A stretch of DNA of 64,000 bases from an uncultured delta proteobacterium (GCA_963850305.1 CAWKKR010000004.1:512001-576000), one strand, 5' to 3'; positions 23,405-55,780 are shown, counted from the first letter of the stretch. Notes: generated from the sequence alone by a model not told the origin. A program made the numbers and translations.

Positions 23405-23419
23405 ACGCAAGCCTTGCGC
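23405..23419. promoter_or_regulatory. Candidate enhancer (UAS) palindrome
   Basis: ACGCAAGCCTTGCGC, ~130 bp upstream of the ppsA sigma54 motif. Confidence 0.4.
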
Positions 23420-23549
23420 TCGTGCGCCTTGAATGCACGGGGGGCGACGGCGACGAGGTCTGCCATGAGCAACCATCATGGCGGGCCGCCGGCTTGCGCG
23501 GAGCAGCCTTCGGACAGAACGAACGCGAACGAAGTGACGCCACCGTGCC

Positions 23550-23565
23550 TGGCATGGGCGTTGCT
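23550..23565 (+). promoter_or_regulatory. sigma54 -24/-12 promoter of ppsA operon
   Basis: TGGCATGGGCGTTGCT (GG-N10-GC). 13 nt separate the -12 C from the ATG. Confidence 0.75.
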
Positions 23566-23577
23566 CTGCGAATTCCT

Positions 23578-25962
23578 ATGAGCGCACAATTCGTAATTCC
23601 GCTGGATCGAGTCGAGCTTTCCGACGTGAGCCGCGTCGGTGGAAAGAACGCCTCGCTCGGGGAGCTGATCCGTCACCTCGGAACGTCCGGAGTGAAGGTC
23701 CCAGGAGGCTTCGCCGTCACGGCCGATGCATTCCGAAAACATCTGGCCGCAAACGATCTCGAATCGCGGATCTATCCGGCTCTCGAGCGGCTGGACGTCC
23801 GGAACGTGGAAGCACTGGAGCGAGAGGCGCTCGGCATTCGCGAGCTGATCCGCGCGGCGCCACTCCCCACGGTCGTGGCCGAAGAGGTTCTCGCTGCATA
23901 TGCCAATCTGTGTGCGGAGTACGGAGTGGCGGAGGCCGACGTGGCCGTGCGATCGAGCGCGACCGCGGAAGACTTGCCCGGGGCGTCTTTTGCGGGCCAA
24001 CAGGAGACGTTTCTCAACGTCCGCGGGGGAGCGCGCCTCCTCGCGCGAGTCCGCGACTGCATGGCGTCGCTCTTCACCGATCGCGCGATCGTCTATCGAG
24101 CCGAGCGCGGCTTCGACCATCGCCAGGTCGCGCTCTCCGTCGGCGTTCAGAAAATGGTCCGCAGCGACGTGGGATCCGCGGGCGTGATCTTCACGCTCGA
24201 CACCGAGTCTGGATTTCGCGACGTCGTCGTCGTCACCGCCGCGTACGGACTCGGGGAGATGGTCGTACAAGGCCGCGTGAACCCCGACGAGTTCTGGGTC
24301 CACAAGCCGACCCTGACGAAAGGGTTTCGGCCGATCCTTCGGCGCGAGCTCGGAGAAAAGGCCATCCGTCTGAAGTACGCCGAAGCGGCCGCTCGCGAGG
24401 TCGTCGAGGAACGAGTTCCCCGGGACGAGCGCCTGCGCTACGCACTCACGGACGACGAGGTGCTCGAGCTCGCACGCGCCGCAATGCGGATCGAGGAACA
24501 CTACAGCGCCGTCGCCGGGCGGCCGATGCCCATGGATATCGAGTGGGCGAAAGACGGCCGCGACGGCGGGCTCTACGTCGTGCAAGCGCGACCCGAGACC
24601 GTTCACTCGAACGGCGGGATTCCCAAGCTCGCTTTCTACCGCCTGCGCGGGAAGAGCGACGTCCTGCTCCGCGGAAAGAGCGTCGGGAGCGGCATCGGCC
24701 GCGGAACGGCGCGGGTCGTCCACTCGCCGACCGAGCTCTCCTCGTTCCAGGAAGGCGAGGTTCTCGTTGCAGCTTCAACCGACCCCGACTGGGAGCCGAT
24801 CCTCCGCCGCGCCTCGGCGGTGGTGACGGACCACGGCGGGCGAACCTGTCACGCGGCCATCGTCTCGCGAGAGCTCGGCATCCCCTGCGTCGTGGGCACG
24901 GGTTCGGCAACGACGACGATTTCGTCCGGAGAGGCGGTCACCGTCTCGTGTGCCGACGGCAGCGAGGGCAGCGTCTACCGCGGGCTCCTCGAATTCGACC
25001 GAACCGAAGTGGACGCGGCGGCGCTTCCTCGGTCGAAGGTGCCGATCATGCTCAATGTCGGCAACCCGGATTCCGCATTCCTGCTGGGCCAGCTCCCGAG
25101 CGCCGGGGTCGGTCTGGCTCGGCTCGAGTTCGTAATTTCCAACTCGATCGGCATTCACCCGATGGCGCTCGTTCATCCGGAGCGTGTCACCGATCGGGTC
25201 GCGCTGGCGGAGATACGCAAGCGCACCGCGGGGTTCTCGAACCCCTCGGACTTCTTCGTCGAACGCCTGGCGTCCGGCATCGCCCGCATCGGTGCGGCGT
25301 TCTATCCACGCCCCGTCATCGTTCGGTTCAGCGATTTCAAGACGAACGAGTACGCATCGCTTCTCGGAGGCGCCACGTTCGAGCCCAGAGAGGACAACCC
25401 GATGATCGGATTTCGCGGCGCCTCGCGGTACTACGACGAGCGCTATCGTGAGGGGTTCGCGCTCGAATGCCGCGCGATCCGGCGGGTTCGTGAGGAGATG
25501 GGCCTGGAGAACGTCGTCGTCATGGTGCCGTTCTGCCGGACCTTGACCGAAGCGCACCGAGTGTTGGCGGAGATGGACGCCAGCGGCCTTCGCCGCGGCG
25601 AGCACGGTCTCGAGGTGTACGTGATGTGCGAGATCCCGAACAACGTCATTCTCGCGAGCGAGTTCGCGGAGCTGTTCGATGGCTTCTCGATCGGCTCGAA
25701 CGATCTCACACAGCTGACACTGGGCGTGGACCGAGACTCGGAACTGCTCTCGCACATCTTCGACGAAGCCGATCCCGGCGTGAAGCGGTCGATCCAGAGC
25801 GTCATTTCTTCGGCGCACGCCAAGGGACGCAAGGTCGGCTTGTGCGGACAAGCGCCCAGCGATCGCCCCGAGTTCGCCGTGTTCCTGGCGGCGTGTGGCA
25901 TCGACTCGATCTCCGTCACCGCCGACGCGCTCCCAGCCATCAAAGAGATCCTCAAGGTGTGA
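23578..25962 (+). CDS. ppsA: Phosphoenolpyruvate synthase (pyruvate, water dikinase)
   Basis: VGGKNASLGE, AVRSSATAEDLP.ASFAGQQET, GGRTCHAAIVSRE (phospho-His), GVGLARLEF and FSIGSNDLTQ motifs. Confidence 0.96.
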   Translation: MSAQFVIPLDRVELSDVSRVGGKNASLGELIRHLGTSGVKVPGGFAVTADAFRKHLAANDLESRIYPALERLDVRNVEALEREALGIRELIRAAPLPTVVAEEVLAAYANLCAEYGVAEADVAVRSSATAEDLPGASFAGQQETFLNVRGGARLLARVRDCMASLFTDRAIVYRAERGFDHRQVALSVGVQKMVRSDVGSAGVIFTLDTESGFRDVVVVTAAYGLGEMVVQGRVNPDEFWVHKPTLTKGFRPILRRELGEKAIRLKYAEAAAREVVEERVPRDERLRYALTDDEVLELARAAMRIEEHYSAVAGRPMPMDIEWAKDGRDGGLYVVQARPETVHSNGGIPKLAFYRLRGKSDVLLRGKSVGSGIGRGTARVVHSPTELSSFQEGEVLVAASTDPDWEPILRRASAVVTDHGGRTCHAAIVSRELGIPCVVGTGSATTTISSGEAVTVSCADGSEGSVYRGLLEFDRTEVDAAALPRSKVPIMLNVGNPDSAFLLGQLPSAGVGLARLEFVISNSIGIHPMALVHPERVTDRVALAEIRKRTAGFSNPSDFFVERLASGIARIGAAFYPRPVIVRFSDFKTNEYASLLGGATFEPREDNPMIGFRGASRYYDERYREGFALECRAIRRVREEMGLENVVVMVPFCRTLTEAHRVLAEMDASGLRRGEHGLEVYVMCEIPNNVILASEFAELFDGFSIGSNDLTQLTLGVDRDSELLSHIFDEADPGVKRSIQSVISSAHAKGRKVGLCGQAPSDRPEFAVFLAACGIDSISVTADALPAIKEILKV

Positions 25963-28724
25963 TGGGAACGCAGAAGGACCCGGAAGCGGCGATCGCCGCC
26001 GAACTGTCCGCCTACGGCGAGGAAGTCATCCTGAAGGACGGTGGCTCCATCCGTCTTCGCGCCGTCGGGGCGCCTGACCGGCAGCGCGTGCGTGCGTTCT
26101 TCGACCGCCTCAGCCCGAGGTCGTCTCGCTATCGCTTCTTCGGAGCGGTGTCGTCTCTTCCGTCAGCGGAGGTGTCCAGGATCGCGGGGCTCGACCCCGG
26201 TCGGACGGTGGCGCTCGCAGCCATCGACGACAGCCACGGCGACGAGGACATCGTTGGCATCGCCGAATTCGCGACGCGTCCTCGTGTCGACGGCTCCCCG
26301 GCGGCGTCGCAGGACCCACATCGAGCCGAATTCGCGGTCGCAGTCGCCGACGACCATCAGGACCGCGGCATCGGAACGCTCCTCCTCGAGCGGACGGCAG
26401 CGGCCGCTCAGAGGTCGGGAATCGACGAGCTCGAGGCCTACGTGCTCGCCGACAATGCCGAGATGCTCGACGTGTTTGCGAAGAGTGGATTTCAAATCCA
26501 GGGGTCGCGGGACCACGAACAATGCAAGGTCGTCTTTCAAACCGCGCAGACCGAGCAATTCGTGGCGGCGAGCCTCGAGCGAGAGCGCCTCGCGGCACGC
26601 GAAAGCGTGCGGGTGTTCTTCGAGCCGAGATCCGTCGCCGTCGTCGGGGTGTCGCGGAAGGAAGGGAGCATCGGCCGCGCCATCGTCGAGAACCTCGTGA
26701 AAGCGGGCTTTCCCGGGCCAATCTACCCCGTGAACTCGAACCTCGGGGAGGTGTCCGGCCTGACTTGCTTTTCGTCACTCCTGGCAGTCGGCAAGCCCAT
26801 CGACCTCGTCGTGATTGCCGTTCCGGCAGCGCAGGTCGAATCCGTGGTCGCCGACTGCGCCCACGTTCACGCGAGAGGCGTGGTCGTCGTGTCCTCGGGA
26901 TTCGGCGAGATGTCTCCGGAAGGCAAGGCCCGAGAGATACGGCTCAGGCACCAGGTGCGAAACGCAGGGATGCGCCTGGTTGGCCCGAATTGCATGGGCG
27001 TCCTCAACGCGGCCGACGACATCCGCCTCAACGCGACGTTCGCACCCGTGTGGCCCCCCTCCGGTAACGTGTCGATGCTCTCCCAGAGCGGCGCGCTCGG
27101 CATCGCGATGCTCGACTACGCGAGACAGTTGAACATCGGCCTCGCTGGATTCGTCTCGGTCGGGAACAAGGCGGACGTCTCGGTCAACGACCTGCTTTCA
27201 TATTGGGCGGACGATCCGAAAACGCGGGTCATCGTTCTCTATCTCGAGAGCTTCGGGAACACGCACAAGTTCGTGCGCCTTGCCCCGGAAGTTGCACGGA
27301 AGAAGCCGATCGTCGCGGTGAAATCCGGTCGCTCGGCGGCGGGGACCAGGGCAGCGAGCAGCCATTCGGCGGCACTTGCCAGCCTGGACGTCGGCATCGA
27401 CGCGCTGTTCGCGCAGGCGGGCGTCATTCGTACGAACACACTCGAGGAGCTCTTCGACGTGGTCGCGCTGCTGTCGACGCAACCTTCTCCGAAGGGGCCG
27501 CGCGTGGGGGTCGTCACGAACGCCGGCGGTCCGGGCATTTTGCTGGCTGATGCTTGCGAGGCCCACGGACTGGCCCTTCCGTCGCTGTCTCCGTCGACGC
27601 TCGAGGCGCTTCGACGGATTCTGCCGCCACAAGCCGGCCTCTCGAATCCCATCGACATGATCGCGTCGGCGAGCCCGGACCAGTTCGAGCAAGCCATTGC
27701 ACTCGTGGGGAATGACCCGCTCGTGGACTCCGTCGTCACCATCTATATTCCGCCCCTGGTCACCAAACCCGAGGAGGTGGCGAGAGGCATCGCGCGCGGT
27801 GCCGCTGCCATTCCGAAGGACAAACCGATCGTCACGGTGTTCATGTCTTCGAAGGGCGCGCCGCCCGTGCTGGCGGAGGGCGCACGCGGCAAGATCCCCT
27901 CGTTCGCCTTTCCCGAGAACGCGGCGCTGGCGCTCTCCGCTGCCCTCGGTCATTCGCGTTTCCAGCAGCGCCCCCGGGGCAATCTCGTCTCCATTCCGCG
28001 CGAGAACGAGCGACGCATTCGTCGACTCGTCGACGACGCCTTGCGCGCCTCGGGCGGGGCTAGCGTTTGGCTCTCGACGCAGGACCTCACGGCCCTCCTC
28101 GACCTCGCCGGGATCCCGTTTGCTCCGAGCAAGATGACCTTGCCAGACCCCGACGCCGCTGGCGCCGCCGGCGACGCCCTCGGGTATCCGGTCGTCTTGA
28201 AGGCTGTCGCCAAGACCCTCATTCACAAGAGCGACGTCGGAGGCGTGTCGCTCGGACTGGGCTCGCGAGAGGCCCTTCGAGACGCTGCCGCAGAGATGAA
28301 GACCCGCATGCAAGGTGGCGACCACACCCTCGAAGGCTTCCTGATTCAACGCCAGATCGACGGCGGAATCGAAGCACTGGTCGGCGTCACGCGAGATCGC
28401 GCACTCGGACCGGTCATCGTGGCTGGCCTCGGAGGCGTTCAGGTCGAATTGCTCGGAGACGTGGCGTTCAGGCTGCCTCCGATCTCCGACCTCGACGCAC
28501 GAGAGATGCTGGATCACCTGAAGGCGAAACGTCTCTTCGACGGCTTTCGAGGCGCCCCCCCTGCCGATCGGGCGGCACTGGTCGACGTGATCTGCAAGGT
28601 GTCCGCCCTCGTCGACATCGTGCCGGAAATTGCGGAGATCGATCTGAACCCCATCAAGGTGCTGATGCCCGAAAGGGGTGTCGTCGTCGTCGACGCGCGG
28701 ATCCGGATCGGGATCGAGAGCTGA
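25962..28724 (+). CDS. GNAT acetyltransferase fused to ADP-forming acyl-CoA synthetase (CoA-binding, ligase, ATP-grasp); Pat/Acd-like
   Basis: N-terminal GNAT (AEFAVAVADDHQDRGIGT), then GPNCMG, SQSGA, GNKAD, AASSHSAALA, TNAGG.G, HKSDVGGV and DLNP. TGATG overlap with ppsA. Confidence 0.9.
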   Translation: MGTQKDPEAAIAAELSAYGEEVILKDGGSIRLRAVGAPDRQRVRAFFDRLSPRSSRYRFFGAVSSLPSAEVSRIAGLDPGRTVALAAIDDSHGDEDIVGIAEFATRPRVDGSPAASQDPHRAEFAVAVADDHQDRGIGTLLLERTAAAAQRSGIDELEAYVLADNAEMLDVFAKSGFQIQGSRDHEQCKVVFQTAQTEQFVAASLERERLAARESVRVFFEPRSVAVVGVSRKEGSIGRAIVENLVKAGFPGPIYPVNSNLGEVSGLTCFSSLLAVGKPIDLVVIAVPAAQVESVVADCAHVHARGVVVVSSGFGEMSPEGKAREIRLRHQVRNAGMRLVGPNCMGVLNAADDIRLNATFAPVWPPSGNVSMLSQSGALGIAMLDYARQLNIGLAGFVSVGNKADVSVNDLLSYWADDPKTRVIVLYLESFGNTHKFVRLAPEVARKKPIVAVKSGRSAAGTRAASSHSAALASLDVGIDALFAQAGVIRTNTLEELFDVVALLSTQPSPKGPRVGVVTNAGGPGILLADACEAHGLALPSLSPSTLEALRRILPPQAGLSNPIDMIASASPDQFEQAIALVGNDPLVDSVVTIYIPPLVTKPEEVARGIARGAAAIPKDKPIVTVFMSSKGAPPVLAEGARGKIPSFAFPENAALALSAALGHSRFQQRPRGNLVSIPRENERRIRRLVDDALRASGGASVWLSTQDLTALLDLAGIPFAPSKMTLPDPDAAGAAGDALGYPVVLKAVAKTLIHKSDVGGVSLGLGSREALRDAAAEMKTRMQGGDHTLEGFLIQRQIDGGIEALVGVTRDRALGPVIVAGLGGVQVELLGDVAFRLPPISDLDAREMLDHLKAKRLFDGFRGAPPADRAALVDVICKVSALVDIVPEIAEIDLNPIKVLMPERGVVVVDARIRIGIES

Positions 28725-28787: not shown

Positions 28788-29216
28788 TCACGCCGCGGGG
28801 GCGCTGGCATCCGCGCGCTGCTTCGAAAAGCTGAGCTCGACCTCGGGTGAGCGGAGCAACGTGCCGAAGGCTGGACAGGCCCGCACCGACCGCTCGATTG
28901 CCGGCAGATAGTCATCGGGCACTCCCGCAGGAAGGGCGACGTGCACGGTCACTTTGTCGAGACGCGGCGTCGGGTCGCGCGCCTTGCGAGCTTCGACCTC
29001 CACGCGGAGTCCCTCCGGCGAGAGCTTCCGTCCGAGCAAGAAGGCGGCGGCGAAGTAGTGCGCGCAAGCCCCGGCCGCCGCTACCATCACGTCGAGCGGG
29101 GACGGCCCACGATCCTCGCCGCCCGGGACGGCGCTCGGTTGGTCGAATAGCAGCTCATGGCTTCCGAGATGGACAGAGCTCGCGACCCCACCCGCTGATT
29201 CGATGATGGCTTTCAT
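28788..29216 (-). CDS. OsmC-family protein
   Basis: DQP..VPGGEDRGPSP......A.GAC followed by a CP...TL motif. Confidence 0.85.
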   Translation of the reverse strand: MKAIIESAGGVASSVHLGSHELLFDQPSAVPGGEDRGPSPLDVMVAAAGACAHYFAAAFLLGRKLSPEGLRVEVEARKARDPTPRLDKVTVHVALPAGVPDDYLPAIERSVRACPAFGTLLRSPEVELSFSKQRADASAPAA

Positions 29217-29231: not shown

Positions 29232-29945
29232 CTACGAGGGACCGTCGCCGAGGACGTACCCGTGACTGCGCGCTAGCCAGGCGAGGACGTCGATGGTCGA
29301 GACGATGCCGACGACGCGGCCAGCCGCGGAAACGACCGGCAGGCGGTGCACGTGTTCGCACGCCATCAGTGCCGCGGCTTTTGCGATCGTCTCGTTGACG
29401 GGAAGACAGAAGGCGATCGGCATCATGATGTCACCGACGGTTGGTGTCGAGGGAGCCGCGAGGTCGCCGTACGACAACCTAATCAGGTTCGTCTTGGAGA
29501 CGACACCGAGGGGACGCCCCTCGTCGTCGACGACCGGTGCGCCGCTGATCCCCCTTTCGAGAAACAGGGCCCCCAGAGCCTCAGCGCCGAGGTCCGCCGT
29601 GACGCAGATCACGTGCCTGGTCATGATCTCCGAAACGAGAGCAAAGTCAGCGCTCCCTGCTTTCGTGGGCGCACGGGAAACGTTGCCGGATCGACTGGAA
29701 ACGGCCTCTTCGTCGGAAAGGCGACACGAGATGAGCACCCCCCGTGCGTCGGGACTCGTGCGGAGCCCGCCATGACGGGAGCAGTCGAAGCAAGCATCCA
29801 GGGCGGTATGCGATCCGCTCAACGGGCATGGCGCGACGAACTCAATCCGTAGGCTGTCCTTTCCCAAGGTCTGCCGCGAATGAAGCGAGGAACTGACGAG
29901 CCTGTAGCCCGCATTTTCCAGTCTGTCCTGTCCATGATCGTTCAT
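29232..29945 (-). CDS. CBS-domain protein with Cys-containing N-terminal extension
   Basis: CBS pair (VSEIMTRHV..., ISGAPVVD..G.PLGVVS, VHRLPVV...G.VVGIVS). AAGGAAG RBS before the ATG at 29945. Confidence 0.8.
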   Translation of the reverse strand: MNDHGQDRLENAGYRLVSSSLHSRQTLGKDSLRIEFVAPCPLSGSHTALDACFDCSRHGGLRTSPDARGVLISCRLSDEEAVSSRSGNVSRAPTKAGSADFALVSEIMTRHVICVTADLGAEALGALFLERGISGAPVVDDEGRPLGVVSKTNLIRLSYGDLAAPSTPTVGDIMMPIAFCLPVNETIAKAAALMACEHVHRLPVVSAAGRVVGIVSTIDVLAWLARSHGYVLGDGPS

Positions 29946-29992: not shown

Positions 29993-30008
29993 TGCAACGA
30001 ATCGGCCA
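29993..30008 (-). promoter_or_regulatory. sigma54 -24/-12 promoter of CBS-osmC unit
   Basis: Minus strand TGGCCGATTCGTTGCA (GG-N10-GC). Confidence 0.7.
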
Positions 30009-30052: not shown

Positions 30053-30067
30053 CTGCACTTCGTGCAC
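30053..30067. promoter_or_regulatory. Candidate enhancer (UAS) palindrome
   Basis: CTGCACTTCGTGCAC (reverse complement GTGCACGAAGTGCAG), upstream of the CBS sigma54 motif. Confidence 0.4.
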
Positions 30068-30158: not shown

Positions 30159-30593
30159 GTGCTGACATTCCGATGCGAGTCCTGCGGCGGGTTGAATCGT
30201 GTTCCCGCGGCCAAGCTGGCGCAAAAGCCCGTGTGCGGCCGCTGCAAGCAGCGACTGGACGTGTCGGGCGCTCCGCAAGCCGTGAACGAAGGAGAGCTCT
30301 CGGGCGCCATCGCGGGGTCGCCGATCCCGGTGCTCGTCGACTTCTGGGCGCCGTGGTGTGGCCCGTGTCGAATGGCCGCACCCATCCTCGAGCGGATTGC
30401 GCGCGCGCGTGCTGGTCGGTTGCTCGTGCTCAAAATCAACGGCGACGAAAATCCGTCCGTGTCTGCGCGGCACCGGGTCCAGGGGATCCCCGCGTTCATC
30501 GCGTTCCGGGACGGTGTCGAGGCCGCCAGGCAGGTTGGCCTCCTGCCGGAACCGGCGTTTGCCCGCTGGGTGGATGGTTTCGTAGCGGCGTGA
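30159..30593 (+). CDS. trxC: Thioredoxin 2 (Zn-finger thioredoxin)
   Basis: N-terminal CESC...NR...CGRC zinc motif and VDFWAPWCGPC active site. Confidence 0.92.
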   Translation: MLTFRCESCGGLNRVPAAKLAQKPVCGRCKQRLDVSGAPQAVNEGELSGAIAGSPIPVLVDFWAPWCGPCRMAAPILERIARARAGRLLVLKINGDENPSVSARHRVQGIPAFIAFRDGVEAARQVGLLPEPAFARWVDGFVAA

Positions 30594-30714: not shown

Positions 30715-31155
30715 CTACTTCGCCCCGCGGACCGTCAGGACCGGAACGGGCGACGTTCGTACGATCTTCTCTGCAACGCTTCCGAGAAGGGCGCGCTCGA
30801 AGCCTCGCCGCCCATGCGTCCCCATGACGATGAGGTCGGCACGCACCTCCCTCGCGCAGTCGAGCGTTTCGCTCCAGGGTACGCCGATGCGGAGAACGGC
30901 CTGTACCGAAGGCAACCGCTTCCGAAGGGCGGCCAGCGTCGCATCGAGCTGTCGTTGCGCGGCCTCTTGAACGGGCGTCAAGACGTCGATGGGGCCCACG
31001 GTCATGCCGGGGTATCCGTAAAGGGGCAGCTCGACGGCGTGAAACAACGTCAACGACGCTTGGTATCGCGTGGCAAGGTCGATGGCGACCTCGAGTGCTT
31101 GCTCGGACGAGTCGGAGAAATCCGTCGGAACCAGGATGCGCTTGATATCGACCAT
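30715..31155 (-). CDS. Universal stress protein (UspA family)
   Basis: ILVPTDFS...; DLIVMGTHGRRG....LLGSVAEKIVR.SPVPVLTV. Confidence 0.93.
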   Translation of the reverse strand: MVDIKRILVPTDFSDSSEQALEVAIDLATRYQASLTLFHAVELPLYGYPGMTVGPIDVLTPVQEAAQRQLDATLAALRKRLPSVQAVLRIGVPWSETLDCAREVRADLIVMGTHGRRGFERALLGSVAEKIVRTSPVPVLTVRGAK

Positions 31156-31186: not shown

Positions 31187-31672
31187 TCATTTGTGGACCG
31201 CGGACTGCGACTCGTGGTGGGTTCTCGGCAGTCGCGCCGTGATTGCGCCGAAGAGCGAGTCGATGAGTGATGCACGTTCGGACTCCGGCACGTGTTCGTC
31301 GGCCCACGCGTAAAGCATCTGGTCCTCGCGGTGCGCGTGCGCTCTGAGTTCGTCGATGAAGGCGCGCGCCGTCTCTGCTCTGACCGCGTGCAGATCCACG
31401 CACGTCCCGAGCTCGAGCAAGCGCTTGCGAATGAGCTCGTGCTCTTTGAGCATGGCGCGGGCCTCGACTTCGTTCGTTCGAAGGAGTGCGGGAATCAGGT
31501 ACCGCTCTTCGACGTCGATGTGGGCGAGCAACTCGGAGTCGAACTTGGTCCAGGTAGCACACACGCCTTCGCGGTCGTCCGCCTCGAACGCCGCGATCAG
31601 ACTGTCGAAAAGACGCTCCAACCGTTTGTGGTCGGAGAGCAGCTGTTCGCGAATCTTGGTCGAGTCGGACAT
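31187..31672 (-). CDS. Hemerythrin/HHE cation-binding domain protein
   Basis: DH..LE..F, HI.VEE..L.P, EH..I and HA.RED..LY are di-iron-type motifs. Confidence 0.82.
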   Translation of the reverse strand: MSDSTKIREQLLSDHKRLERLFDSLIAAFEADDREGVCATWTKFDSELLAHIDVEERYLIPALLRTNEVEARAMLKEHELIRKRLLELGTCVDLHAVRAETARAFIDELRAHAHREDQMLYAWADEHVPESERASLIDSLFGAITARLPRTHHESQSAVHK

Positions 31673-31684: not shown

Positions 31685-31700
31685 AGCAAGGCGCGTGCCG
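31685..31700 (-). promoter_or_regulatory. sigma54 -24/-12 promoter of hemerythrin-usp unit
   Basis: Minus strand CGGCACGCGCCTTGCT, 13 nt to the ATG. Confidence 0.75.
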
Positions 31701-31834: not shown

Positions 31835-31849
31835 GCGCAATCCGTGCGC
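31835..31849. promoter_or_regulatory. Candidate enhancer (UAS) palindrome between divergent sigma54 promoters
   Basis: GCGCAATCCGTGCGC, ~135 and ~100 bp from the two promoters. Its reverse complement is 14/15 identical to 52149-52163. Confidence 0.5.
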
Positions 31850-46363: not shown

Positions 46364-47500
46364 ATGGGGCTCGTGGCAGAGGTACTCGACACGAGCGCAC
46401 TGGGCGACTTGCTCGCACTGCTCGTCGACGAGGGCCGTACGCTCATCGGACCCACGGTCCGCGACGGTGCGATCGTGTACGACGAGATCGGAGGGCTCTC
46501 CGAGTTACCCGAGGGGTGGACTGCCTCACAGAGCCCGGGAAGCTACAGGCTGGAGCGACGGAAGGACCGAGCCTTGTTCGGCTTCGCGTCGAGCGGCAGA
46601 TCGTTCAGGCCTTTTTTCCACGTGCCGGTGGAACGACTCGTCACGCTACGGCGCAGTGGCGAAGGGTGGTCGGCCGTCGGGGAACCGACGGTGGGGCGGA
46701 AGCTTGCCCTGATCGGGGCCAGGGCCTGTGATCTCGCGGCCCTAGCGGTGCAAGATCGGGTGTTCGTCGAGGGGGCTTTCCCCGACCCGCGGTACGCCGC
46801 GCGGCGCGCGAATACCTTCGTCATCGCGGTGAACTGCGGCGAAGCCGGTGGGACTTGCTTCTGCACTTCGATGGGAACGGGTCCACGGGCAACCCACGGC
46901 TACGATCTTTCGCTCACCGAGGTCCTCGACGGCGAACACCGCTTCGTCGTCGAGGCGGCCACGGCCGAAGGCGCGCGCTTGCTCGCAGCCGTGCGAAGTC
47001 GCGCTGCGAACGTGGGGGACCTCGCCGCCGCGAACCGGGCCGTGGAGCATGCGCGCGACACCATGGGCCGTTCTCTCGACACCCGCGGCATCCGCGACCT
47101 GTTGTTCGACAACCTGGAGCACCCGCGGTGGGACGACGTCGCCGCGCGCTGCCTCTCGTGCACGAACTGTACGCTCGTCTGCCCGACCTGCTTCTGCGGG
47201 ACGATCGACGAAGTCGCGTCGCTCGAGCCGGACGTCGTGGAGCGCAGGAAACGCTGGGATTCGTGCTTCACGGAGGAGCATTCGTACCTGCATGGCGGCG
47301 CCGCTCGGCCATCGGTGCGGGCGCGCTATCGTCAGTGGCTCACGCACAAGCTCGCCGGATGGATCGACCAATTCGGAAGCTCGGGTTGCGTGGGGTGCGG
47401 TCGCTGCATAACGTGGTGTCCTGCGGGCATCGACATCACCGAAGAGGTGGCCGCGATCCGGGGCAGGCCCGTCCCCACCGCGCGGGAGCAAACACCGTGA
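46364..47500 (+). CDS. Group 3b [NiFe]-hydrogenase beta subunit (4Fe-4S, AsrA-like)
   Basis: [37 protein letters not shown] and [13 protein letters not shown] motifs. Confidence 0.9.
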
Positions 47501-47964
47501 CCTTCGAATCGACCGAGCGCTTGCTCCGCGAGCATTCCTTCACGGAGGGCATGTCGGACGCCCATGTGCGCTTCATGTTCGGGTGCATGAAGAACGTGCG
47601 CTACCGGACCGGCGAGTACCTGTTTCGCGAGGGGGAGGCCGCGGACCAGCTCTTCCTCCTGCGCCAGGGCCGCGTCACTCTGGAGGTACACGCCGCGGGA
47701 AGCGGCGCTACCCAGCTCGAGAGCCTCGGTGAAGGGGACGTGCTCGGGTGGTCGGTGCTCTTCCCTCCACACCGATGGGACACGGACTGCCGCGTCCTCG
47801 AAACGTGCGTCGCCCTCCTGTTCGACGGGAGCTGCCTGCGGCAAAAGGTCGAGCAAGATCTGCCGTTCGCTTATGCCCTCACGCGGCGCTTGCTCTACGT
47901 CGTGCACCGACGTCTCGAGCGCGCCCGTCTCCACGAAGCGGATGTGTACGGGGCGCGCGCTTGA
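47497..47964 (+). CDS. Stand-alone cyclic nucleotide-binding domain protein
   Basis: [18 protein letters not shown]...GEGDVLGWS with no HTH. GTGA overlap with the beta subunit. Confidence 0.85.
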
Positions 47965-48791
47965 CGTTCGGGTCCCCACACGACCCGATGGTCCCAGCAT
48001 TTCTGCGCGTCTTGCGCGTTCGTCGCGAGACCGAAGACGTGCGCACGGTCGAGATCGACACTTCGGAATCCGGCTTCTCCTTCCTGCCGGGGCAATTCAA
48101 CATGCTGTACGCGCCGGGCCTCGGAGAGAGCGCGATCTCCGTGAGCGGCGATCCCTCGAAGCCCGCTCGCCTCGTGCACACCATCCGTGCGGTCGGCACT
48201 GCCACGCGCGGGCTCACCGCCCTCCGCCGCGGAGACCAGGTCGGAGTGCGCGGTCCCTTCGGCCATGGATGGCCGCTCGAAGCGGCGGTCGGGGGTGATG
48301 TGGTCATCGTCGCTGGCGGGCTTGGGCTCGCGCCGCTCCGGTCCGCGATCTACGAACTTTGCCGGCGCCGCCCCGAGTTCGGGCACGTCGCCGTGGCGTG
48401 CGGTGCTCGGTCTCCCGACCAGGTGTTGTTCCAGACCGAGCTCGCCCGGTTCGGCGAGAAGCTCGATGTGTCGGTGACGGTCGATAGCGCCGACGAAGGC
48501 TGGACGGGGGCCACGGGGGTCGTGACCGGCCTGCTTCCGCGGGCCGTGCGCGATCCGCCGCGAACCACGGCGTTCGTCTGCGGCCCCGAGGTGATGATGC
48601 GCTTCGCGGCGCGGGAGCTTTCGCGGCTCGGTGTCGCCGAGACGCGGATCTTCGTTTCCCTCGAGCGCAACATGAAGTGCGGGCTCGGACACTGTGGCCA
48701 CTGCCAGCTCGGACCGACCCTCATCTGCCGCGACGGACCGGTCTACGGGTACGATCGCGTGAACCGGTATCTTCACGTGCGGGAGCTCTAG
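47961..48791 (+). CDS. Group 3b hydrogenase gamma subunit (FAD/NAD(P)-binding, 2Fe-2S)
   Basis: [31 protein letters not shown] and ERNMKCG.G.CGHCQ....IC.DGPV motifs. Confidence 0.9.
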
Positions 48792-49586
48792 GTGAGCCCG
48801 CGCCGTCCGAAGCTCGCCGTCTGGAAGTTCGCCTCCTGCGATGGGTGCCAGCTGTCGCTGCTCGACTGCGAGGACGAGCTGCTCACGGTGGCCGAGCACG
48901 TGACGATCGCGCATTTCCTGGAAGCATCGAGCGCCACCGTGAGGGGCCCGTACGACGTTTCTCTCGTCGAGGGATCGGTGACGACGGCGCACGACGCGGA
49001 ACGCATCCAGGCGATCCGGCGCGCATCGAAGAAGCTCGTCACGATCGGCGCTTGCGCCACTGCCGGCGGGGTTCAGGCACTGCGGAACTTCCGGGACGAA
49101 AAGGAGTTCCTCTCCGTCGTCTACGCGCACCCGGAATACATCGACTCGCTCTCGACCTCCACGCCGATCGCGGCACACGTGCCGGTCGATTTCGAGCTCC
49201 ACGGCTGTCCCATCGACAAGCGGCAGCTCCTCGAGGCGCTCGCCGCGCTCGTGAACGGCCGCATTCCGTCCGTTCCATCGACTCCCGTGTGCGTCGAATG
49301 CAAGAGCCGCGGCACCTCGTGCGTCGTTGTCGCGCGCGGCACTCCGTGCCTCGGTCCAGTCACTCAGTCGGGCTGTGGCGCGCTCTGCCCGAGCTTCGAC
49401 CGCGGCTGCTACGGCTGCTTCGGACCCGTCCGCGGCGCGCAGACGGCTTCTCTCGAACCCTTGCTCTTGCGGCTGGGGACGTCGCCGCGTCAGATCGAGC
49501 GCCTTTACTCGACCTTCAACGTCGCCGCCCCCGCGTTCGAGGCGGCGGCCGGGAGCGCGCGGGAAAAGGAGCCTCGAGGTGGCTAG
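48792..49586 (+). CDS. Group 3b hydrogenase small (delta) subunit
   Basis: ASCDGCQ, VEGS, GACA..GG, GCP, CLGPVT..GCGA.CP and GCYGCFGP motifs. No Tat signal. Confidence 0.9.
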
Positions 49587-50865
49587 GACCATTCGCATCG
49601 ACCAGCTCGCTCGCGTCGAAGGCGAGGGATCGCTGACGATCCGCTTTTCGGGCAATCGACCGAAAGACGTGGAGCTCAGGATCTTCGAGCCGCCCCGCTT
49701 CTTCGAAGCGTTCCTCCGGGGCCGTTCGTGTCTCGAGGCCCCCGACCTCACCGCACGCATCTGCGGTATCTGTCCGGTCGCGTACCAGATGAGTGCTTGC
49801 GCGGCGATCGAGGACGCTCTGGGCGTAGACGTGGGCGCCGACATCCGGGCGCTCCGCCGCTTGCTGTACGCGGGTGAATGGATCGAGAGCCACTGCCTGC
49901 ACGTGTTCATGCTGCACGCGCCGGATTTTCTCGGGTACCCGAGCGGCGTGGCGATGGCGAAGGATCACCCCGAACCGGTACGAGCAGGACTCCGCATCAA
50001 GAAGGCGGGGAACGCCATCGTGCGCGCGCTGGGAGGCCGCGAGATCCACCCCATCAACGTGCGAGTCGGCGGATTCTATAGAGTGCCGTCGCGAAGCGAG
50101 CTCGAGGCACTCGTGCCGGAGCTCGAGTGCGCCCGCAAGCAGGCGCGCGAGAGCCTCGAGTGGATGGCAAGGTTCGACTTCCCGGACTTCGAGCGGGACT
50201 ACGAGCTCGTCGCGCTGCGAAGTGGTGACGACTACCCGACGTGCGGCGGACGACTCGCGTCGAACAAGGGTCTCGACGTCGCGGTGACCGACTACGATGA
50301 GTGGTTCACGGAGGAACAGGTGGAGTATTCCACGGCGCTCCACTCGACCCTGCGTGGGCGTGACGCCTACCTGTGCGGCCCGCTCTCACGGATCAATCTG
50401 GCGTTCGAGCGTCTCTCGCCTGCGGCACGGGAAGCCGCCGGGGCCGTCGGATTCTCGGTGCCGTGCATGAATCCGTTCAAGAGCCTGCTCGCCCGCTTGC
50501 TGGAGATCATTCACGCTCTCGACGAATCCCTTCGGTTCGTTGCTTCGTATACGGTGCCCGCGGTGCCGAGTGTTGATGTCCGGATGCACGAAGGGATCGG
50601 TCGGGGTGCCACGGAGGCGCCGCGCGGCCTTCTCTATCACCGCTACCAGCTCCGCGACGATGGCACGATCGAGAACGCGAAGATCGTCCCCCCGACGTCG
50701 CAGAACCAGAAATCCATCGAGCGCGACCTCTTCGAGATCGCACCTCGGCTCGCCGCGATGCCGCATCCGGCCGCCTGCACGCTGGCCGAGCAGACCGTCC
50801 GAAACCACGACCCTTGCATTTCTTGCTCCACGCACTTCCTGAAGCTCGACATCGTGCACGAGTGA
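49579..50865 (+). CDS. Group 3b [NiFe]-hydrogenase large (alpha) subunit
   Basis: RVEGEG, EPPRFFE, L1 RICGICP, EAPRG and L2 DPCISCSTH followed by a cleavable tail FLKLDIVHE. Confidence 0.94.
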
Positions 50866-50872: not shown

Positions 50873-51361
50873 ATGCGAGGGCGCGTCATCGGGATCGGTC
50901 AGCAATCGGCGGGGGACGACGGGGCGGGGCTCGCCGTCATCGAGGCTCTGCGGCAGTATCCGGAAGCGCGCGACCTCGATCTGGTCGTCACGGACGACGC
51001 GAGTGACCTCATCGTGTTGCTCGAGTGTCCGGCTCCCGTGATCGTCGTGGACGCGGTCGTTGGAGCGGGGCCTCCGGGGCAGATCCTCGTCGTCACACCC
51101 GCATCGCTCGCGAACGCGCCCCCGTCGAGACTCTCGACGCATGGGCTCGGCGTCCGTCAAGCGATCGAGCTGTCGGCCATCCTGTCGCCGAACCTGGTCG
51201 CCAGGGAGATCCACATCGTTGCGCTCTGCATCGCCGAACCCGAGCGCGCGGTCATCGGGCTCTCGCCGCCGGTACGAGACGCGGCGGAGCGCGCCGCTCG
51301 CCTCGTCCTGGATATCGTCGACCGTCGCCGGCAGTCGAGTCGAGCGAGCTTCGAGCGGTGA
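50873..51361 (+). CDS. Hydrogenase maturation endopeptidase
   Basis: IGIG....GDDG.G, VVDA and STH motifs. Directly after the large subunit. Confidence 0.88.
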   Translation: MRGRVIGIGQQSAGDDGAGLAVIEALRQYPEARDLDLVVTDDASDLIVLLECPAPVIVVDAVVGAGPPGQILVVTPASLANAPPSRLSTHGLGVRQAIELSAILSPNLVAREIHIVALCIAEPERAVIGLSPPVRDAAERAARLVLDIVDRRRQSSRASFER

Positions 51362-51367
51362 AATGAC

Positions 51368-52027
51368 TCACTTGAACGGGATCAGAAACCCGGACTGATG
51401 ACCCGATCGTTGAGGGTTGAAATGGTACGTGTGTGGCCGCTGATGATGTTCCGCGTGTTGTTCACACCAGAACTCCTTGCCGTTGGTCACTCGACGCGTT
51501 TCGAGGCAACGCGGGCAGGGTGGTTCGATCTTGGGGGTTTTGATCCCGGCAACCGATCCGGCGGGACGGAACACGAGGACGGGGCAAGGAGCCAGCCTGA
51601 TCGTCGCCTCCGCGACCGAACCGAGGAAGAAATGCCCCGCGCCCCGGCGACCATGGGTTCCCACGATCACGAGGTCGGCTTCGACATCGGCGGCGAGCTG
51701 GGAGATCACCTCTGCGGGGTGGTAAAGGCCGATGTGGGTCATCAATCGGTCGAACGGGGCGCCGCTGCTGAAGCGGTCCGCATGCCGGGCCAGCAGTTCC
51801 TCCACATGGGCTTGCAAGCGCAGGGATTCCTCGGACAGGTCGGGCGCCGTCACCGCGCCCACCGGGAGCACCGTGACCCTTCCGATGACGTGAACGACGT
51901 GAATCTGGGTCGGCTGGTGCCTTCCTGCGATGTCGATGGCGTAATCGAGAGCTCCACTGCCGAGATCGGAGTAGTCGATCCCGACGACGATCGTGAAAGG
52001 CTTCGTTTCTCGGCTGGCTTGGGTCAT
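51368..52027 (-). CDS. Universal stress protein with C-terminal Cys/His extension
   Basis: IVVGIDYS and DLVIVGTHGRRG...FFLGSVAE...R.APCPV; tail CPRC...WCEQH..HH...H. GGAGG RBS. Confidence 0.88.
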   Translation of the reverse strand: MTQASRETKPFTIVVGIDYSDLGSGALDYAIDIAGRHQPTQIHVVHVIGRVTVLPVGAVTAPDLSEESLRLQAHVEELLARHADRFSSGAPFDRLMTHIGLYHPAEVISQLAADVEADLVIVGTHGRRGAGHFFLGSVAEATIRLAPCPVLVFRPAGSVAGIKTPKIEPPCPRCLETRRVTNGKEFWCEQHAEHHQRPHTYHFNPQRSGHQSGFLIPFK

Positions 52028-52048: not shown

Positions 52049-52064
52049 TGCATGCAATGGGCCA
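52049..52064 (-). promoter_or_regulatory. sigma54 -24/-12 promoter of second usp
   Basis: Minus strand TGGCCCATTGCATGCA (GG-N10-GC). Confidence 0.62.
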
Positions 52065-52148: not shown

Positions 52149-52163
52149 GCGCACGGAGTGCGC
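52149..52163. promoter_or_regulatory. Candidate enhancer (UAS) palindrome
   Basis: GCGCACGGAGTGCGC, ~85 bp upstream of the usp promoter. A partial copy, GTGCAATTCCGTCGC, lies at 52130-52144. Confidence 0.5.
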
Positions 52164-52225: not shown

Positions 52226-52999
52226 TCAATGGGAGTCGATCCCCGCCCTCTTCGCGAGCGCTCGATCGATGAGCTCGTGGAGGGCTCCTTCCACCTCGTG
52301 CCGAAGCCGCTCGGCCACCTCCGGGTCTTCGGCCTGATCCGGACGGGCCTGCGGCATGATCGGGTCACCCACCAGGTAGCGCAAGCGAACGAGATGGGGG
52401 ATCGGAAGAATTCGCGAAGGCAACGGGATTGGAAAGTCGTTCCGATGCAGCCATCGCCGGCCGCGTGTGTAGGCGTCGCCCACGAAGTCGAAAGCATCGT
52501 CGGCGCCGATGGCCGCGAGCGGCACGAGGGGAGCCTGATTGCGGATTGCCGCCCGCACGAAGCCGTAGCGATTCCCCCAGAGCAAGCGATAACGGAGCTC
52601 CCGCGGTTTGACGGCTTCGCGAAGCCCGCCGGGCAAGACGAGTACGAGCTCATCACGGCTGAGTAGCCGATCGACATTCTCCGGAGTGCCGTCGACCGTG
52701 CCGGTCGCCGCGGCAATCCGTCTCAGAAAGGGCACGCGCCACCACGCGTGCTCGCCGAGCGCCCAGACCGTTCGGTGGAGCTCCTCGCCGATGGCCGCCA
52801 TTGGAAAGAGCACGTCCCAGCCGAACGCATGATTCGCGACGAGAAGCGCCCGGCCGCGGGGGACCTTCTCGAGTCCTTCGATCTCCACCTTCAGCCGCCG
52901 CGAAACCCACGTGACAGCTGCATACAAGCGTCGCGCGGAATCCGGCGAGAAGGCGACGAAGGCGTCCCGGTATTCGGGACGAAAGCGATCGATAGTCAT
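52226..52999 (-). CDS. Lysophospholipid/acylglycerol acyltransferase (PlsC/DGAT2-like)
   Basis: NHAFGWD (HX4D), PGG.REA and GFVR.A....AP.VP motifs. Confidence 0.85.
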   Translation of the reverse strand: MTIDRFRPEYRDAFVAFSPDSARRLYAAVTWVSRRLKVEIEGLEKVPRGRALLVANHAFGWDVLFPMAAIGEELHRTVWALGEHAWWRVPFLRRIAAATGTVDGTPENVDRLLSRDELVLVLPGGLREAVKPRELRYRLLWGNRYGFVRAAIRNQAPLVPLAAIGADDAFDFVGDAYTRGRRWLHRNDFPIPLPSRILPIPHLVRLRYLVGDPIMPQARPDQAEDPEVAERLRHEVEGALHELIDRALAKRAGIDSH

Positions 53000-53115: not shown

Positions 53116-53132
53116 CGCGATCCGATGGGAAA

Positions 53133-53603
53133 TCACGCTGTCCGGACCTTCACCTCGCGCGGTTTGGATTCCGGTTTCTTCGCCAGAACCAGCTTGAGGA
53201 CGCCGTCCTTGAGATCGGCTCGGACCGAATCCGCGTCGACGCCTTCGGGGAGCGCGAACGATCGGGTGAACGAGCCATAAGAGCGCTCGTACGAATAGTA
53301 CGTGTCGCTCTTGTCGGTCTTTTCCGCCTCGCGCTTGCCGCTCACGGTCAGACGGTTGTCGTTCATGTGGACTTCGAGATCCTTCGCATCGACACCCGGC
53401 ACATCGGCCTTGAATTCGAACGCGTCCTTCGTTTCCTTGATCTCGAACGCGGGCGCGAACGAGGCGACGCCTTCGAGCGACGCGCCCTGCCGGAAGGGAT
53501 CCCACTGCAAGAGCTCGCGGAAAGCCGTGAAAGGATCCCACGTCGCTCGCGCGGCGAGCTTCCGGTTGTCATTGGTGTGCTTGTCGACTGTGATATTTGC
53601 CAT
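53133..53603 (-). CDS. Hsp20/alpha-crystallin small heat-shock protein
   Basis: E.KD.F...ADVPG, L.VSGKR and ERSYGSF.RSF.LP..VD...A...DGVL motifs. Confidence 0.94.
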   Translation of the reverse strand: MANITVDKHTNDNRKLAARATWDPFTAFRELLQWDPFRQGASLEGVASFAPAFEIKETKDAFEFKADVPGVDAKDLEVHMNDNRLTVSGKREAEKTDKSDTYYSYERSYGSFTRSFALPEGVDADSVRADLKDGVLKLVLAKKPESKPREVKVRTA

Positions 53604-53688: not shown

Positions 53689-53704
53689 AGCAACCCGCAT
53701 GCCA
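53689..53704 (-). promoter_or_regulatory. sigma54 -24/-12 promoter of hsp20
   Basis: Minus strand TGGCATGCGGGTTGCT. Confidence 0.78.
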
Positions 53705-53755
53705 ACGCGCGCGGGTCGGCGACGCTGCCGTGCGCGCGCCGCCGCACGTATTCGG

Positions 53756-53771
53756 TGGCACGCCTGTTGCT
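53756..53771 (+). promoter_or_regulatory. sigma54 -24/-12 promoter of pcm fusion
   Basis: TGGCACGCCTGTTGCT is near-perfect consensus; 14 nt to the ATG. Confidence 0.82.
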
Positions 53772-53784
53772 GGCTCGAACTCCC

Positions 53785-55780
53785 ATGTCCGAGTTCGAGC
53801 GCTTGCGCTCACGCATGGTCGATTTGCAGCTTGCTCGCCGCGGCATCACCGACCCGCGGATTCTGGACGCCTTTCGCTCGGTCCCGCGGGAAGAGTTCGT
53901 GCCGGCGGAGCTCGGAGAATTCGCGTACGAAGATGCGCCGCTCCCGATCGGGGAGGAGCAGACCATCTCGCAGCCATACATCGTCGCATTGACGATAGAG
54001 GAGCTCGGTCTGCGCGGCGGCGAGCGCGTCCTCGAAGTGGGAACCGGGTCCGGGTACGCCGCGGCCGTGCTGGGTCGCGTGGCGAGGGAGGTCTACACGA
54101 TCGAACGCCGTCCGCTCCTCTCGGAGGCGGCAGCGGAACGGCTTTCACGTCTCGGCTTCGCCAACGTGCATGTCACGAGTGGGGACGGCTCTCTCGGCTG
54201 GCCCGAGCACGCACCCTACGACGCGATTGCGGTCGCCGCCGGAGGGCCGAAGCCGCCGCCCGCGCTCCTGTCGCAGCTGGCAATCGGCGGTCGTCTCGTG
54301 ATTCCGGTCGGTGAAGACATCTCCTCGCAAGTGCTCGTACGGATCACCCGCGAGGGGGAGAATCGGTATCGAGAAGAGCCTCTCACGGGTGTCCGGTTCG
54401 TGCCGCTCGTCGGTGAACAGGCATGGGCCGAGGAAGGCTCGAACGTCATCGCGTCCCCGCCCCGCCCTCGAGGCTCCTCGGGTCTCGCCGCACTCGTGCG
54501 TGAAACCGCGGAGCCAATCGACGACATCGAGACCGGTTCGGTCGATGCGATCCTCGATCGGATCGGGGACGCGCGGGTCGTCCTGCTCGGCGAGGCGACC
54601 CACGGCACGAGCGAGTTTTACCGGATGAGGGCGCGCCTCTCACGGGAGCTCATCCTGCGACGCGGGTTTCAGTTCGTCGCCGTCGAGGCCGACTGGCCCG
54701 ACGCCGCTCGCATCGACGACTACGTTCTCGGCGGCGAGCGTCGATTCGAAGCTAGAATTCACTCCGTTCGCTCGATTCCCCACCTGGATGTGGCGCAACC
54801 AAGAGGTGCATGCGTTCGTCGAATGGCTCCGCGCGTACAACGCCGAGCAGGGCCGGCACGCGGGCTTCCACGGGCTCGACCTCTACAGCCTCTTCACGTC
54901 GATCGCGGCGGTCCTCACTTACCTGAACGAGGTCGACCCCGACGCCGCGAAGGTCGCGCGTCACCGCTACGGCGCGCTGACGCCCTGGCAGAAGGATCCA
55001 GCCGCTTATGGTCGGGCGGTCCTCGCCGGGCGTTACGAGAGCTCCGAGCTGGAGGTCGTGGCGATGCTTCGCGATCTGCTCGAGCGCCGGATGGACTATG
55101 CCGCTCGCGACGGCGAACGGTTCTTCGATGCGGCGCAGAACGCGCGGCTCGTCGCGGATGCGGAGCGCTATTACCGGGCGATGTACTACGGTGCGGCGGC
55201 TTCCTGGAACCTGCGCGATGCACACATGTTCGAGACGTTGCAGTCGTTACTCGGGTTTTACGGTCCGGAATCCAAGGGGATCGTCTGGGAGCACAACTCG
55301 CACGTGGGCGACGCGACGGCCACCGAGATGAGCGCGCGCGGCGAGCACAACGTCGGGCAGCTCTGCAGGGTGGCATTCGGCGAACGGGTCCAAATCATCG
55401 GCTTCGGGACAGACCACGGCACCGTCGCGGCGGCTTCCGACTGGGACGAACCGATGGAGCGCATGCGCGTCTTGCCGGCCCGGAACGGAAGCTACGAGCG
55501 CATCTTCCACGAAAGCGCGGTGCCGGCATTCGCCCTTCCCTTGCGAAGACCGGCGCGCCGCGCGGTACGCGACGAGCTGATGCCGTCCCTCCTCGAACGC
55601 GCCATCGGCGTCGTATATCGACCGCAGACGGAGCTGCAGAGCCACTACTTTTCCGCGAGCCTCCCGCGCCAGTTCGACGAATACATCTGGTTCGACGAAA
55701 CGCGCGCGGTGAGTCCCCTCGGCGAGTTGCGCCGTCCGCCGAGCGGCGAGTTACCCGACACGTACCCGTTCGGCCTGTGA
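53785..55780 (+). CDS. pcm: Protein-L-isoaspartate O-methyltransferase fused to erythromycin-esterase-family domain; one frameshift at ~54745
   Basis: QTISQP, VLEVGTGSGY and FVPL, then LLGEATHGTSEFY and EADWPD. Removing one T from CGATTCG joins to RFPTWMWRN...WEHNSH...QFD. Confidence 0.88.

Follow-up and report, generated by a model that had tools for sequence, protein, structure and literature searches.

The DNA considered here is a window of 64,000 nucleotides (nt) from an uncultured delta proteobacterium (GCA_963850305.1 CAWKKR010000004.1:512001-576000), which corresponds to C4:512001-576000 in a genome, G000, of 6.26 Mb in 11 contigs that is 94.8% complete. At positions 23578-55780 it carries a block of stress and fermentation genes accompanied by sigma-54 promoter boxes. 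The block is probably under the control of an activator resembling NmpR of the myxobacterial NmpRSTU hypoxia system, acts at low oxygen and is predicted to serve a survival fermentation. An initial annotation had described the region as a hypoxia and dormancy island mirroring the mycobacterial DosR regulon. All of the families that it listed are present according to Pfam and NCBIfam profile matches, by which gene families were assigned, and no DNA-binding regulator is encoded among the block genes, as had been proposed. The outline of the block is correct in gene content, but not in its start at 23405, which is the first base of an NmpR-type site and not the start of a gene.

The block begins with ppsA, encoding a phosphoenolpyruvate (PEP) synthase (23578-25962, + strand; NF005057/TIGR01418 above cut-off), and a gene for a 920-aa fusion of a GNAT domain with an NDP-forming acyl-CoA ligase (25962-28724, +). 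These are followed by genes for an OsmC-like protein (28788-29216, -), a CBS-pair protein with a Cys-rich N-terminal extension (CBS1; 29232-29945, -), a TrxC-type thioredoxin with a Zn ribbon (30159-30593, +), a universal stress protein (USP 1; 30715-31155, -), a hemerythrin-like HHE protein (31187-31672, -), a second CBS-pair protein (CBS2; 31976-32425, +) and a PfkA-family phosphofructokinase (32446-33556, +; frameshift near 33115). A predicted operon on the minus strand starts with a CrtI-like FAD oxidoreductase (39542-41056), continues with a FAD amine-oxidase-family oxidoreductase (38190-39545) and ends in a NifJ-type pyruvate:ferredoxin oxidoreductase (PFOR; 34610-38193, 3' end approximate; TIGR02176), which is spread over at least four reading frames in this assembly, and a DHODH-like flavoprotein (33620-34612, 5' end approximate; NF005741), which is out of frame above ~34483. 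On the plus strand lie genes for a beta-phosphoglucomutase-family HAD protein (41444-42247; TIGR02009; PDB 8H5S, E 1e-80), a GH65 glycoside phosphorylase/hydrolase (42244-44604), a tandem SpoIIAA-like protein (44721-45536) and a class I S-adenosylmethionine (SAM) methyltransferase (45678-46298).

The hydrogenase genes come next, all on the plus strand: hyhB for the 4Fe-4S beta subunit (46364-47500), a gene for a stand-alone cyclic nucleotide monophosphate (cNMP)-binding protein without a helix-turn-helix (47497-47964), hyhG for the FAD/NAD(P) gamma subunit (47988-48791), hyhS for the small subunit (48792-49586), hyhL for the large subunit (49579-50865; NCBIfam and motif check) and a gene for a maturation protease (50873-51361; TIGR00072). 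The remaining genes encode USP 2, with a Cys/His-rich C-terminal tail (51368-52027, -), a PlsC/DAGAT-type acyltransferase (52226-52999, -), Hsp20 (53133-53603, -) and a fusion of PCMT with an erythromycin-esterase domain (53785-55780, +), which has a frameshift near 54745 and forms one frame in relatives. A tRNA-Arg(CCG) gene (55782-55856, -) abuts the block with its 3' end, 1 nt from the stop codon of the last block gene. Where no model or check is named, the assignment is by Pfam, together with NCBIfam for the GNAT-ligase, the thioredoxin, the phosphofructokinase, the amine-oxidase-family enzyme and HyhB, HyhG and HyhS. The GNAT-ligase, the DHODH-like gene after PFOR, both FAD oxidoreductases, the SpoIIAA-like protein, the methyltransferase, the cNMP-binding protein and the tRNA had been missed by the initial annotation. 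The Cys-rich ends of CBS1 and USP 2 could possibly act as metal or redox switches.

Two of the enzymes deserve closer description. The hydrogenase has the beta, gamma, delta and alpha subunits and the protease of group 3b, with both Ni-binding CxxC motifs in HyhL. The best NCBIfam matches of its subunits are ShyA-D/HydA-G, below the archaeal cut-offs of those models. Enzymes of group 3b are reversible. No hyp maturation genes occur in the block, but the genome has the hypA-F set, with hypA, F, C, D and E on contig C5 and hypB on C11 (the hypD match reaches model position 315/351). The cNMP-binding gene within the operon is matched in 63 of 80 GTDB hydrogenase loci across phyla, and its product is possibly an allosteric regulator. 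The GNAT-ligase is closer to ADP-forming ligases (E 3e-70) than to PatZ-type protein acetyltransferase entries (E 3e-45). It retains a His, taken here to be the catalytic one, at the position where solved ADP-forming ligases have their SH motif.

Promoters were sought with the sigma-54 -24/-12 consensus, and a box was counted as near-consensus when it matched at 11 or all 12 of the positions. Six of the 77 such boxes in the genome fall in the 32.7-kb block, where 0.4 are expected, which places it at the top of 731 windows; four weaker boxes are also present. The boxes precede ppsA (23550-23565, +), CBS1 (weak, 29993-30008), the HHE gene (31685-31700), CBS2 (weak, 31948-31963), the HAD gene (41411-41426), the SpoIIAA-methyltransferase-hydrogenase genes (44679-44694, +), USP 2 (52049-52064), Hsp20 (53689-53704) and the PCMT-esterase fusion (perfect, 53756-53771), and a candidate for the CrtI-like/PFOR operon lies at 41186-41201. 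An ATG follows 13 nt after the boxes of ppsA, the HHE gene and CBS2 and 14 nt after that of the fusion gene; the same spacing of 13-14 nt occurs in the window at 10947. Genome-wide, 22 of 99 strong boxes are followed by an ATG at 13-14 nt (1.7 expected), and 19 of 23 ATGs placed in this way begin frames that are 80 aa or longer; in relatives the spacing occurs at 19 of 71 boxes (1.3 expected). This excess supports the boxes as real promoters, and near-leaderless mRNAs are therefore predicted, in the block for ppsA, the HHE gene, CBS2 and pcm.

Several of these promoters are combined with a second type of element. In M. xanthus, GCGCA-N5-TGCGC is the binding site of NmpR, whose CBS target is up 6.5-fold in hypoxia (PMC11841059). 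Predicted sites of this type, with an intact GCA-N5-TGC core, accompany sigma-54 boxes in four intergenic regions of the block and, weakly, in a fifth. The first (23405-23419, 1 mismatch) lies 130 nt upstream of the ppsA box. A perfect site (31835-31849) stands between the divergent HHE and CBS2 promoters, in the same intergenic region as one with 2 mismatches (31904-31918). A TGCA variant with 2 mismatches (41377-41391) is 19 nt from the HAD box and may serve the divergent PFOR operon. Another perfect site (52149-52163) is found 84 nt upstream of the USP 2 box, and the weak fifth, again a TGCA variant, is near CBS1 (30053-30067). The sites in the block are single or 54 nt apart, and not paired within one promoter, mostly at 14-15 nt, as in M. 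xanthus; pairs at 14-15 nt occur in the relatives G134, G176, G432 and G095.

The association between site and box extends beyond the block. Sites with at most 1 mismatch are found upstream of 17 of 204 strong intergenic boxes, with 1.3 expected. The same test, applied to 35 regions of 34 relatives chosen for PFOR, hydrogenase or PCMT-esterase content, gives 26 of 110 strong boxes vs 420 of 18,453 weak-box controls. In an unseeded screen of 2,816 palindromes, CGCA-N5-TGCG ranked first upstream of boxes both in this genome and in relatives (29/109 vs 1.1; 16/381 vs 1.7). The distances between site and box follow a period of 10.5 bp (R 0.55; 50 of 54 distances, four above 116 nt being dropped, with eight periods tried and kin not independent).

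Two activators of the NmpR clade are encoded off the contig of the block, at C7:1008348 and C8:1451130. They fall in one clade (SH-aLRT 100) with activators that adjoin AfGcHK-type globin kinases, in a quick tree of 53 rows in which M. xanthus NmpR is not included; activators beside globin kinases in family f48 form a different clade. The C7 activator has D54, V87 and K104-P105 at the published positions, although these are common REC residues, and a perfect site stands upstream of the box that precedes its gene. Next to it lies a gene for an NmpS-like hybrid kinase (C7:1010094-1011503, REC-PAS-HisKA-HATPase), 51-55% identical to those of complete cassettes in G084 and G095. USP, alanine dehydrogenase and Hsp20 genes accompany this pair at C7:1005600-1011500. 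No named NCBIfam model scores above its cut-off for the activators or kinases. The published M. xanthus nmpR primer, used as a pattern, has no exact match in 292 + 14 genomes, and primer-derived peptides did not single out one activator. A close orthologue of the C7 activator was not found in five congeners, which carry solely the C8 type, in three of the five. Sites of the TGCA-N5-TGCA variant occur at C8:1462500-1464700 and, in the window, at 30053 and 41377; such variants may belong to the C8-type activator, whose recognition helix is slightly unlike that of the C7 protein.

The sensory part of the system appears to differ between this genus and many of its relatives. An HMM, tblastn and two protein queries detected no globin kinase NmpU in G000 (at 94.8% completeness); it was not found in five congeners either, and NmpT was not found in G000. 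Among the 250 family genomes at least 90% complete that were surveyed, 153 have the globin sensor, including 62 of the 70 hydrogenase carriers. In G084 the cassette consists of globin kinase, REC protein, hybrid kinase and an activator that shares 71% identity with the C7 protein. In G134 a complete nmpU-T-S cassette lies between PFOR and hydrogenase, with paired perfect sites 14 nt apart, in the order CBS-USP-USP-globin kinase-REC protein-hybrid kinase-activator-like-USP-PFOR-DHODH, next to the hydrogenase. A globin kinase also lies between PFOR and hydrogenase in G432 and G076. The globin of G019 matches AfGcHK (PDB 5OHE), which is a homologue of NmpU (PMC6211767); in that genome (L169:787-3500), genes for a protoglobin-STAS (RsbR-like) protein and a STAS protein lie directly upstream of the globin kinase and activator.

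Kinases with two PAS domains offer another oxygen input. Full matches to PAS-PAS hybrid kinases number at least 3 in G000 and at least 3-4 in G001, G003 and G004, with none among the candidates scored in G005 and G006; these counts are lower bounds, since 10 candidates were scored per genome. PAS1 of the protein at C8:883351 aligns with FixL, including the His of the haem-binding helix, presumably the haem ligand. Because the globin kinase was not found in this genus, such FixL-like PAS kinases are likely to provide the oxygen input.

The flanks and the rest of the genome show where the block belongs. PilZ proteins and a TIGR02232 cysteine-rich repeat protein are encoded beside it, which fits a host that would belong to the family Polyangiaceae. 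Myxobacteria of this type are widely regarded as strict aerobes and are abundant soil predators and decomposers. The genome encodes three haem-copper oxidases, one of them cbb3, and a bd oxidase, in agreement with the initial annotation, which had taken the host for an aerobe. The possibility that these are housekeeping genes of an anaerobe is rejected because of these four terminal oxidases. A weak partial match at most was obtained for NrfA, and two molybdopterin loci are present. The left flank is formed by a cysteine-rich repeat protein of 1,281 aa that has a PA14 domain (window 19212-23057) and was not found near the tRNA in two congeners checked. Upstream of an acyl-CoA ligase-like gene, a 41-nt direct repeat stands in tandem at window 13554-13635 (93% identical).

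The tRNA-PilZ-kinase flank is shared by 6/6 congeners, and the slot on its other side is variable. Over the 60 kb compared in G001 and the 16.8 kb compared in G004, the region 3' of the tRNA contains no block genes, and the comparison with G006 is limited to 1.5 kb; in two congeners the slot holds helicase, Uma2, dynamin-like and ABC genes instead. An integrative genomic island was considered and rejected: no att duplicate of the tRNA end was found, no integrase is among the block genes, and composition is not atypical (GC ordinary; GC3 0.805 vs 0.814), so that solely the tRNA-adjacent variable slot fits.

Nor does the block form a unit. Its whole order was not found in the 80 GTDB hydrogenase loci or in the family loci compared, and it is one of several such clusters in the genome, so the island of the initial annotation does not hold as a unit. 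The recurring parts are hyhB-cNMP-hyhG-hyhS-hyhL, PFOR-DHODH (the DHODH-like gene follows PFOR in 15 of 16 loci of relatives) and partial groups in G001 and G036. In the family survey, HyhL is found in 70 of 250 genomes (0 of 5 congeners) and PFOR in 84 (2 of 5 congeners). Both occur together in 33 genomes, in 9 of these on one contig within 45 kb.

Sister clusters complete this picture. At C5:16-66 kb there are a second group 3b hydrogenase (frameshifted), hypAFCDE, ackA, xfp, glycogen phosphorylase, PDH and Pta; C5:16000-73000 also has Dps, MaoC-Pta and an internal insertion sequence, with a VapE-like gene and a resolvase-like open reading frame (ORF) at the edge, and looks more mobile than the block in the window. 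C8:1435-1470 kb carries cbb3, CBS, USPs, an activator, ackA, xfp and a second GNAT-ligase, together with LOG/lysine decarboxylase, metal-dependent RNase and ABC genes. Multiheme c-type cytochromes (NapC/NirT-like, c7/c3-like) lie at C8:1454000-1462300 between the activator of the cbb3 cluster and USP-ackA-ligase-xfp. Further sister clusters are at C8:876-886 kb and C7:1005-1011 kb. Since its parts recur in the family and sister clusters exist in the same genome, the block is one part of an accessory regulon that is dispersed over several places.

Among described systems, four are relevant. DosR is a two-component regulator, and in the mycobacterial regulon Rv2030c is a different fusion and OtsB1 is a single fused gene, whereas in the block the esterase domain is joined to PCMT, and HAD and GH65 are encoded separately. 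In Mycobacterium smegmatis, the proteins under DosR control include Hyh, HspX, a PEP synthase and a phosphofructokinase, as the initial annotation had noted in part, and the block shares with this aerobe's hypoxia programme a group 3b hydrogenase, an HspX-type Hsp20, a PEP synthase and a phosphofructokinase (10.1101/2023.09.11.557286; 10.64898/2026.10.24.761498). The phosphofructokinase is PfkB there and PfkA in the block (10.1101/2023.09.11.557286); carbon goes to triacylglycerol there, while the block adds PFOR and an acetate-type ligase. The DosR consensus has two matches at 3 mismatches in the window and none in the block (3.2 expected). No DosS/T-DosR pair is present in the block, the part of the genome to which the search for it was confined. 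Without DosR or FNR boxes, and with PfkA instead of PfkB and several families that are analogues, the block is not a DosR regulon. The parallel drawn by the initial annotation thus stands for function and for the presence of the families, but not for the box, the Pfk family, the gene fusions or the sameness of several families, which are mere analogues. Its idea of a low-oxygen programme is borne out insofar as the block genes belong to a recurring low-oxygen gene pool.

Two precedents had been overlooked. The lxa locus of the aerobic Gram-negative Burkholderia cenocepacia likewise clusters low-oxygen USPs, an alpha-crystallin and a sugar kinase, and was already likened to DosR by its authors; LOG/lysine decarboxylase, metal-dependent RNase and ABC genes are shared with the C8 sister cluster (PMC3721108). 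It differs in its TGA-N6-TCA (Fnr/Anr-like) motif and its own regulators, and the table passages list no hydrogenase or PFOR (PMC3721108). Control of the FNR or lxa type was rejected for the block, the motif being at chance level (TTGA-N6-TCAA with 1 mismatch, 12 vs 8.5 expected, one of them in a block intergenic region). The second precedent is the myxobacterial hypoxia regulon NmpRSTU, whose site and promoter type mark the block (PMC11841059). In common are sigma-54 promoters, GCGCA-N5-TGCGC, CBS, USP and hemerythrin targets, a site in front of the activator gene itself, a hybrid kinase of the NmpS type and, in relatives, the nmpU-T-S order (PMC6211767, PMC11841059). As described, the NmpR regulon comprises seven promoters for oxygen use (cbb3, hemN), and the passages on it name no PFOR, hydrogenase, PpsA or acyl-CoA ligase, all of which the block has (PMC11841059). 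The present system differs also in that the globin kinase and NmpT were not found, two NmpR-clade activators exist, most sites are single and the targets are clustered. A partial parallel is the nifJ operon of Synechocystis (sll0741-sll0744), in which PFOR is followed by a DHODH-like gene and induced in microoxic conditions with the bidirectional hydrogenase, although that hydrogenase is of the Hox type and control is by SigE/cyAbrB2 (PMC11368403). Judged by its sequence features, the block best fits an extended NmpR-type regulon without NmpU.

The predicted mechanism would run as follows. Low oxygen would be sensed by the FixL-like haem-PAS hybrid kinases, and the phosphorylated activator would bind CGCA-N5-TGCG enhancers and open sigma-54 promoters, several of them giving near-leaderless mRNA. 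The arrested cell would be protected by the USP, CBS, Hsp20, TrxC, OsmC, HHE and PCMT proteins. GH65/beta-phosphoglucomutase, Pfk and PpsA would feed pyruvate, which PFOR would convert to acetyl-CoA; acetate and ATP would arise from the His-bearing ligase or from AckA/Pta (C5, C8). The group 3b hydrogenase, matured by the C5/C11 hyp genes, would dump NAD(P)H as H2. Because no site was found at the hydrogenase, hsp20 and pcm promoters, read-through or a second activator is proposed to reach them.

Several observations weigh against this reading. No NmpR-type site lies upstream of the hydrogenase, hsp20, pcm or plsC promoters of the block, the 41377 site is merely 19 nt from the nearest box, and the motif by itself shows no enrichment in the window, with 8 occurrences for 11.7 expected. 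In a strict test with a 600-nt window, a site and box directly upstream were found for 5 of 27 hyhB and 3 of 16 PFOR loci of relatives (controls 22/3,000 and 14/3,464), and for none of the sampled hydrogenase loci of genera g70 and g110. No strong site (TGCA-variant or none) accompanies the cbb3 cluster on C8, although cbb3 is an NmpR target in M. xanthus (PMC11841059). The putative orthology of the activators with NmpR rests on synteny and the quick tree, and the presence of PFOR is not associated with the globin sensor (48/84, p 0.41). PFOR, pfk and the esterase fusion are frameshifted. Finally, GNAT-ligase fusions of type II Pat are described as ligase-dead acetyltransferases without the catalytic His (PMC8556138); in the block's protein the His is kept.

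Part of this evidence would also suit a general sigma-54 stress or starvation cluster served by several activators, in which NmpR-type control covers the USP/CBS/HHE/ppsA part alone and hydrogenase and PFOR are passengers. The missing sites at the hydrogenase, hsp20 and pcm promoters, the few loci passing the strict test, the genome's 34 AAA-domain matches to sigma-54 activators and the unconserved gene order all point that way. Such a cluster is nevertheless unlikely: the strict-test rates of 19% are ~25-fold above controls, the Nmp cassette or its globin kinase is placed between PFOR and hydrogenase in G134, G432 and G076, and both a site and a box precede the hydrogenase copy on C5.

The frameshifts raise the possibility that the block is an accessory patch, in decay or wrongly polished, at a hot spot beside a tRNA, where horizontally transferred modules have accumulated by chance and fermentation no longer functions in this strain. 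PFOR in at least four frames, the broken pfk and PCMT-esterase genes, the heavily frameshifted C5 hydrogenase copy, the unrelated genes in the congeners' slot and the absence of close hydrogenase matches in all 6 congeners examined agree with it. However, at the breaks the reading frame switches while an identity of 62-80% persists on both sides. When compared with long ORFs of relatives, 9 of 64 loci switch frame, of which 2 belong to the block and 3 to the C5 cluster, the other 4 lying elsewhere. Because these four fall outside both clusters, consensus error is plausible as the source. With the five hydrogenase genes of the block intact, GC3 ordinary and boxes and sites near-consensus, such a patch appears quite improbable.

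One could also regard the hydrogenase as an NAD(P) enzyme that chiefly oxidises H2 or reduces sulfur and PFOR as serving microaerobic growth with cbb3 instead of fermentation, given the sub-threshold sulfhydrogenase matches, the reversibility of group 3b and the hypothetical link from PFOR ferredoxin to an NAD(P)-type hydrogenase. This is very improbable in view of H2 evolution by M. smegmatis Hyh in hypoxia (10.1101/2023.09.11.557286; 10.64898/2026.10.24.761498), the co-induction of PFOR, the DHODH-like gene and hydrogenase in microoxic Synechocystis (PMC11368403) and the acetate-forming genes clustered with these loci.

Low-oxygen control of a survival fermentation by an NmpR-like activator therefore remains the preferred reading of the block. 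A wider proposal can be put forward tentatively, with the balance somewhat against it: Polyangiaceae-type myxobacteria may commonly carry an H2/acetate survival fermentation (group 3b hydrogenase in ~1/4 and PFOR in ~1/3 of family genomes) wired into Nmp oxygen sensing as a sigma-54 counterpart of DosR, the globin sensor being replaced in this genus by FixL-like haem-PAS kinases and many targets being near-leaderless. Literature searches on myxobacterial fermentation by group 3b hydrogenase or PFOR, on NmpR and on leaderless sigma-54 mRNAs, a coverage outside which most subscription papers fall, yielded no title or abstract opening that describes a link of Nmp control to PFOR or hydrogenase. 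Myxococcota are absent from the main text of a recent preprint on fermentation by aerobes in soils, whose supplements of metagenome-assembled genomes (MAGs) could include group 3b Myxococcota. As described, the NmpR regulon serves Myxococcus only in using scarce oxygen. If the same switch indeed drives PFOR and an H2-evolving hydrogenase, this would directly answer how 'obligately aerobic' myxobacteria outlast anoxia, and it would add one more phylum to those in which aerobes ferment in soils.

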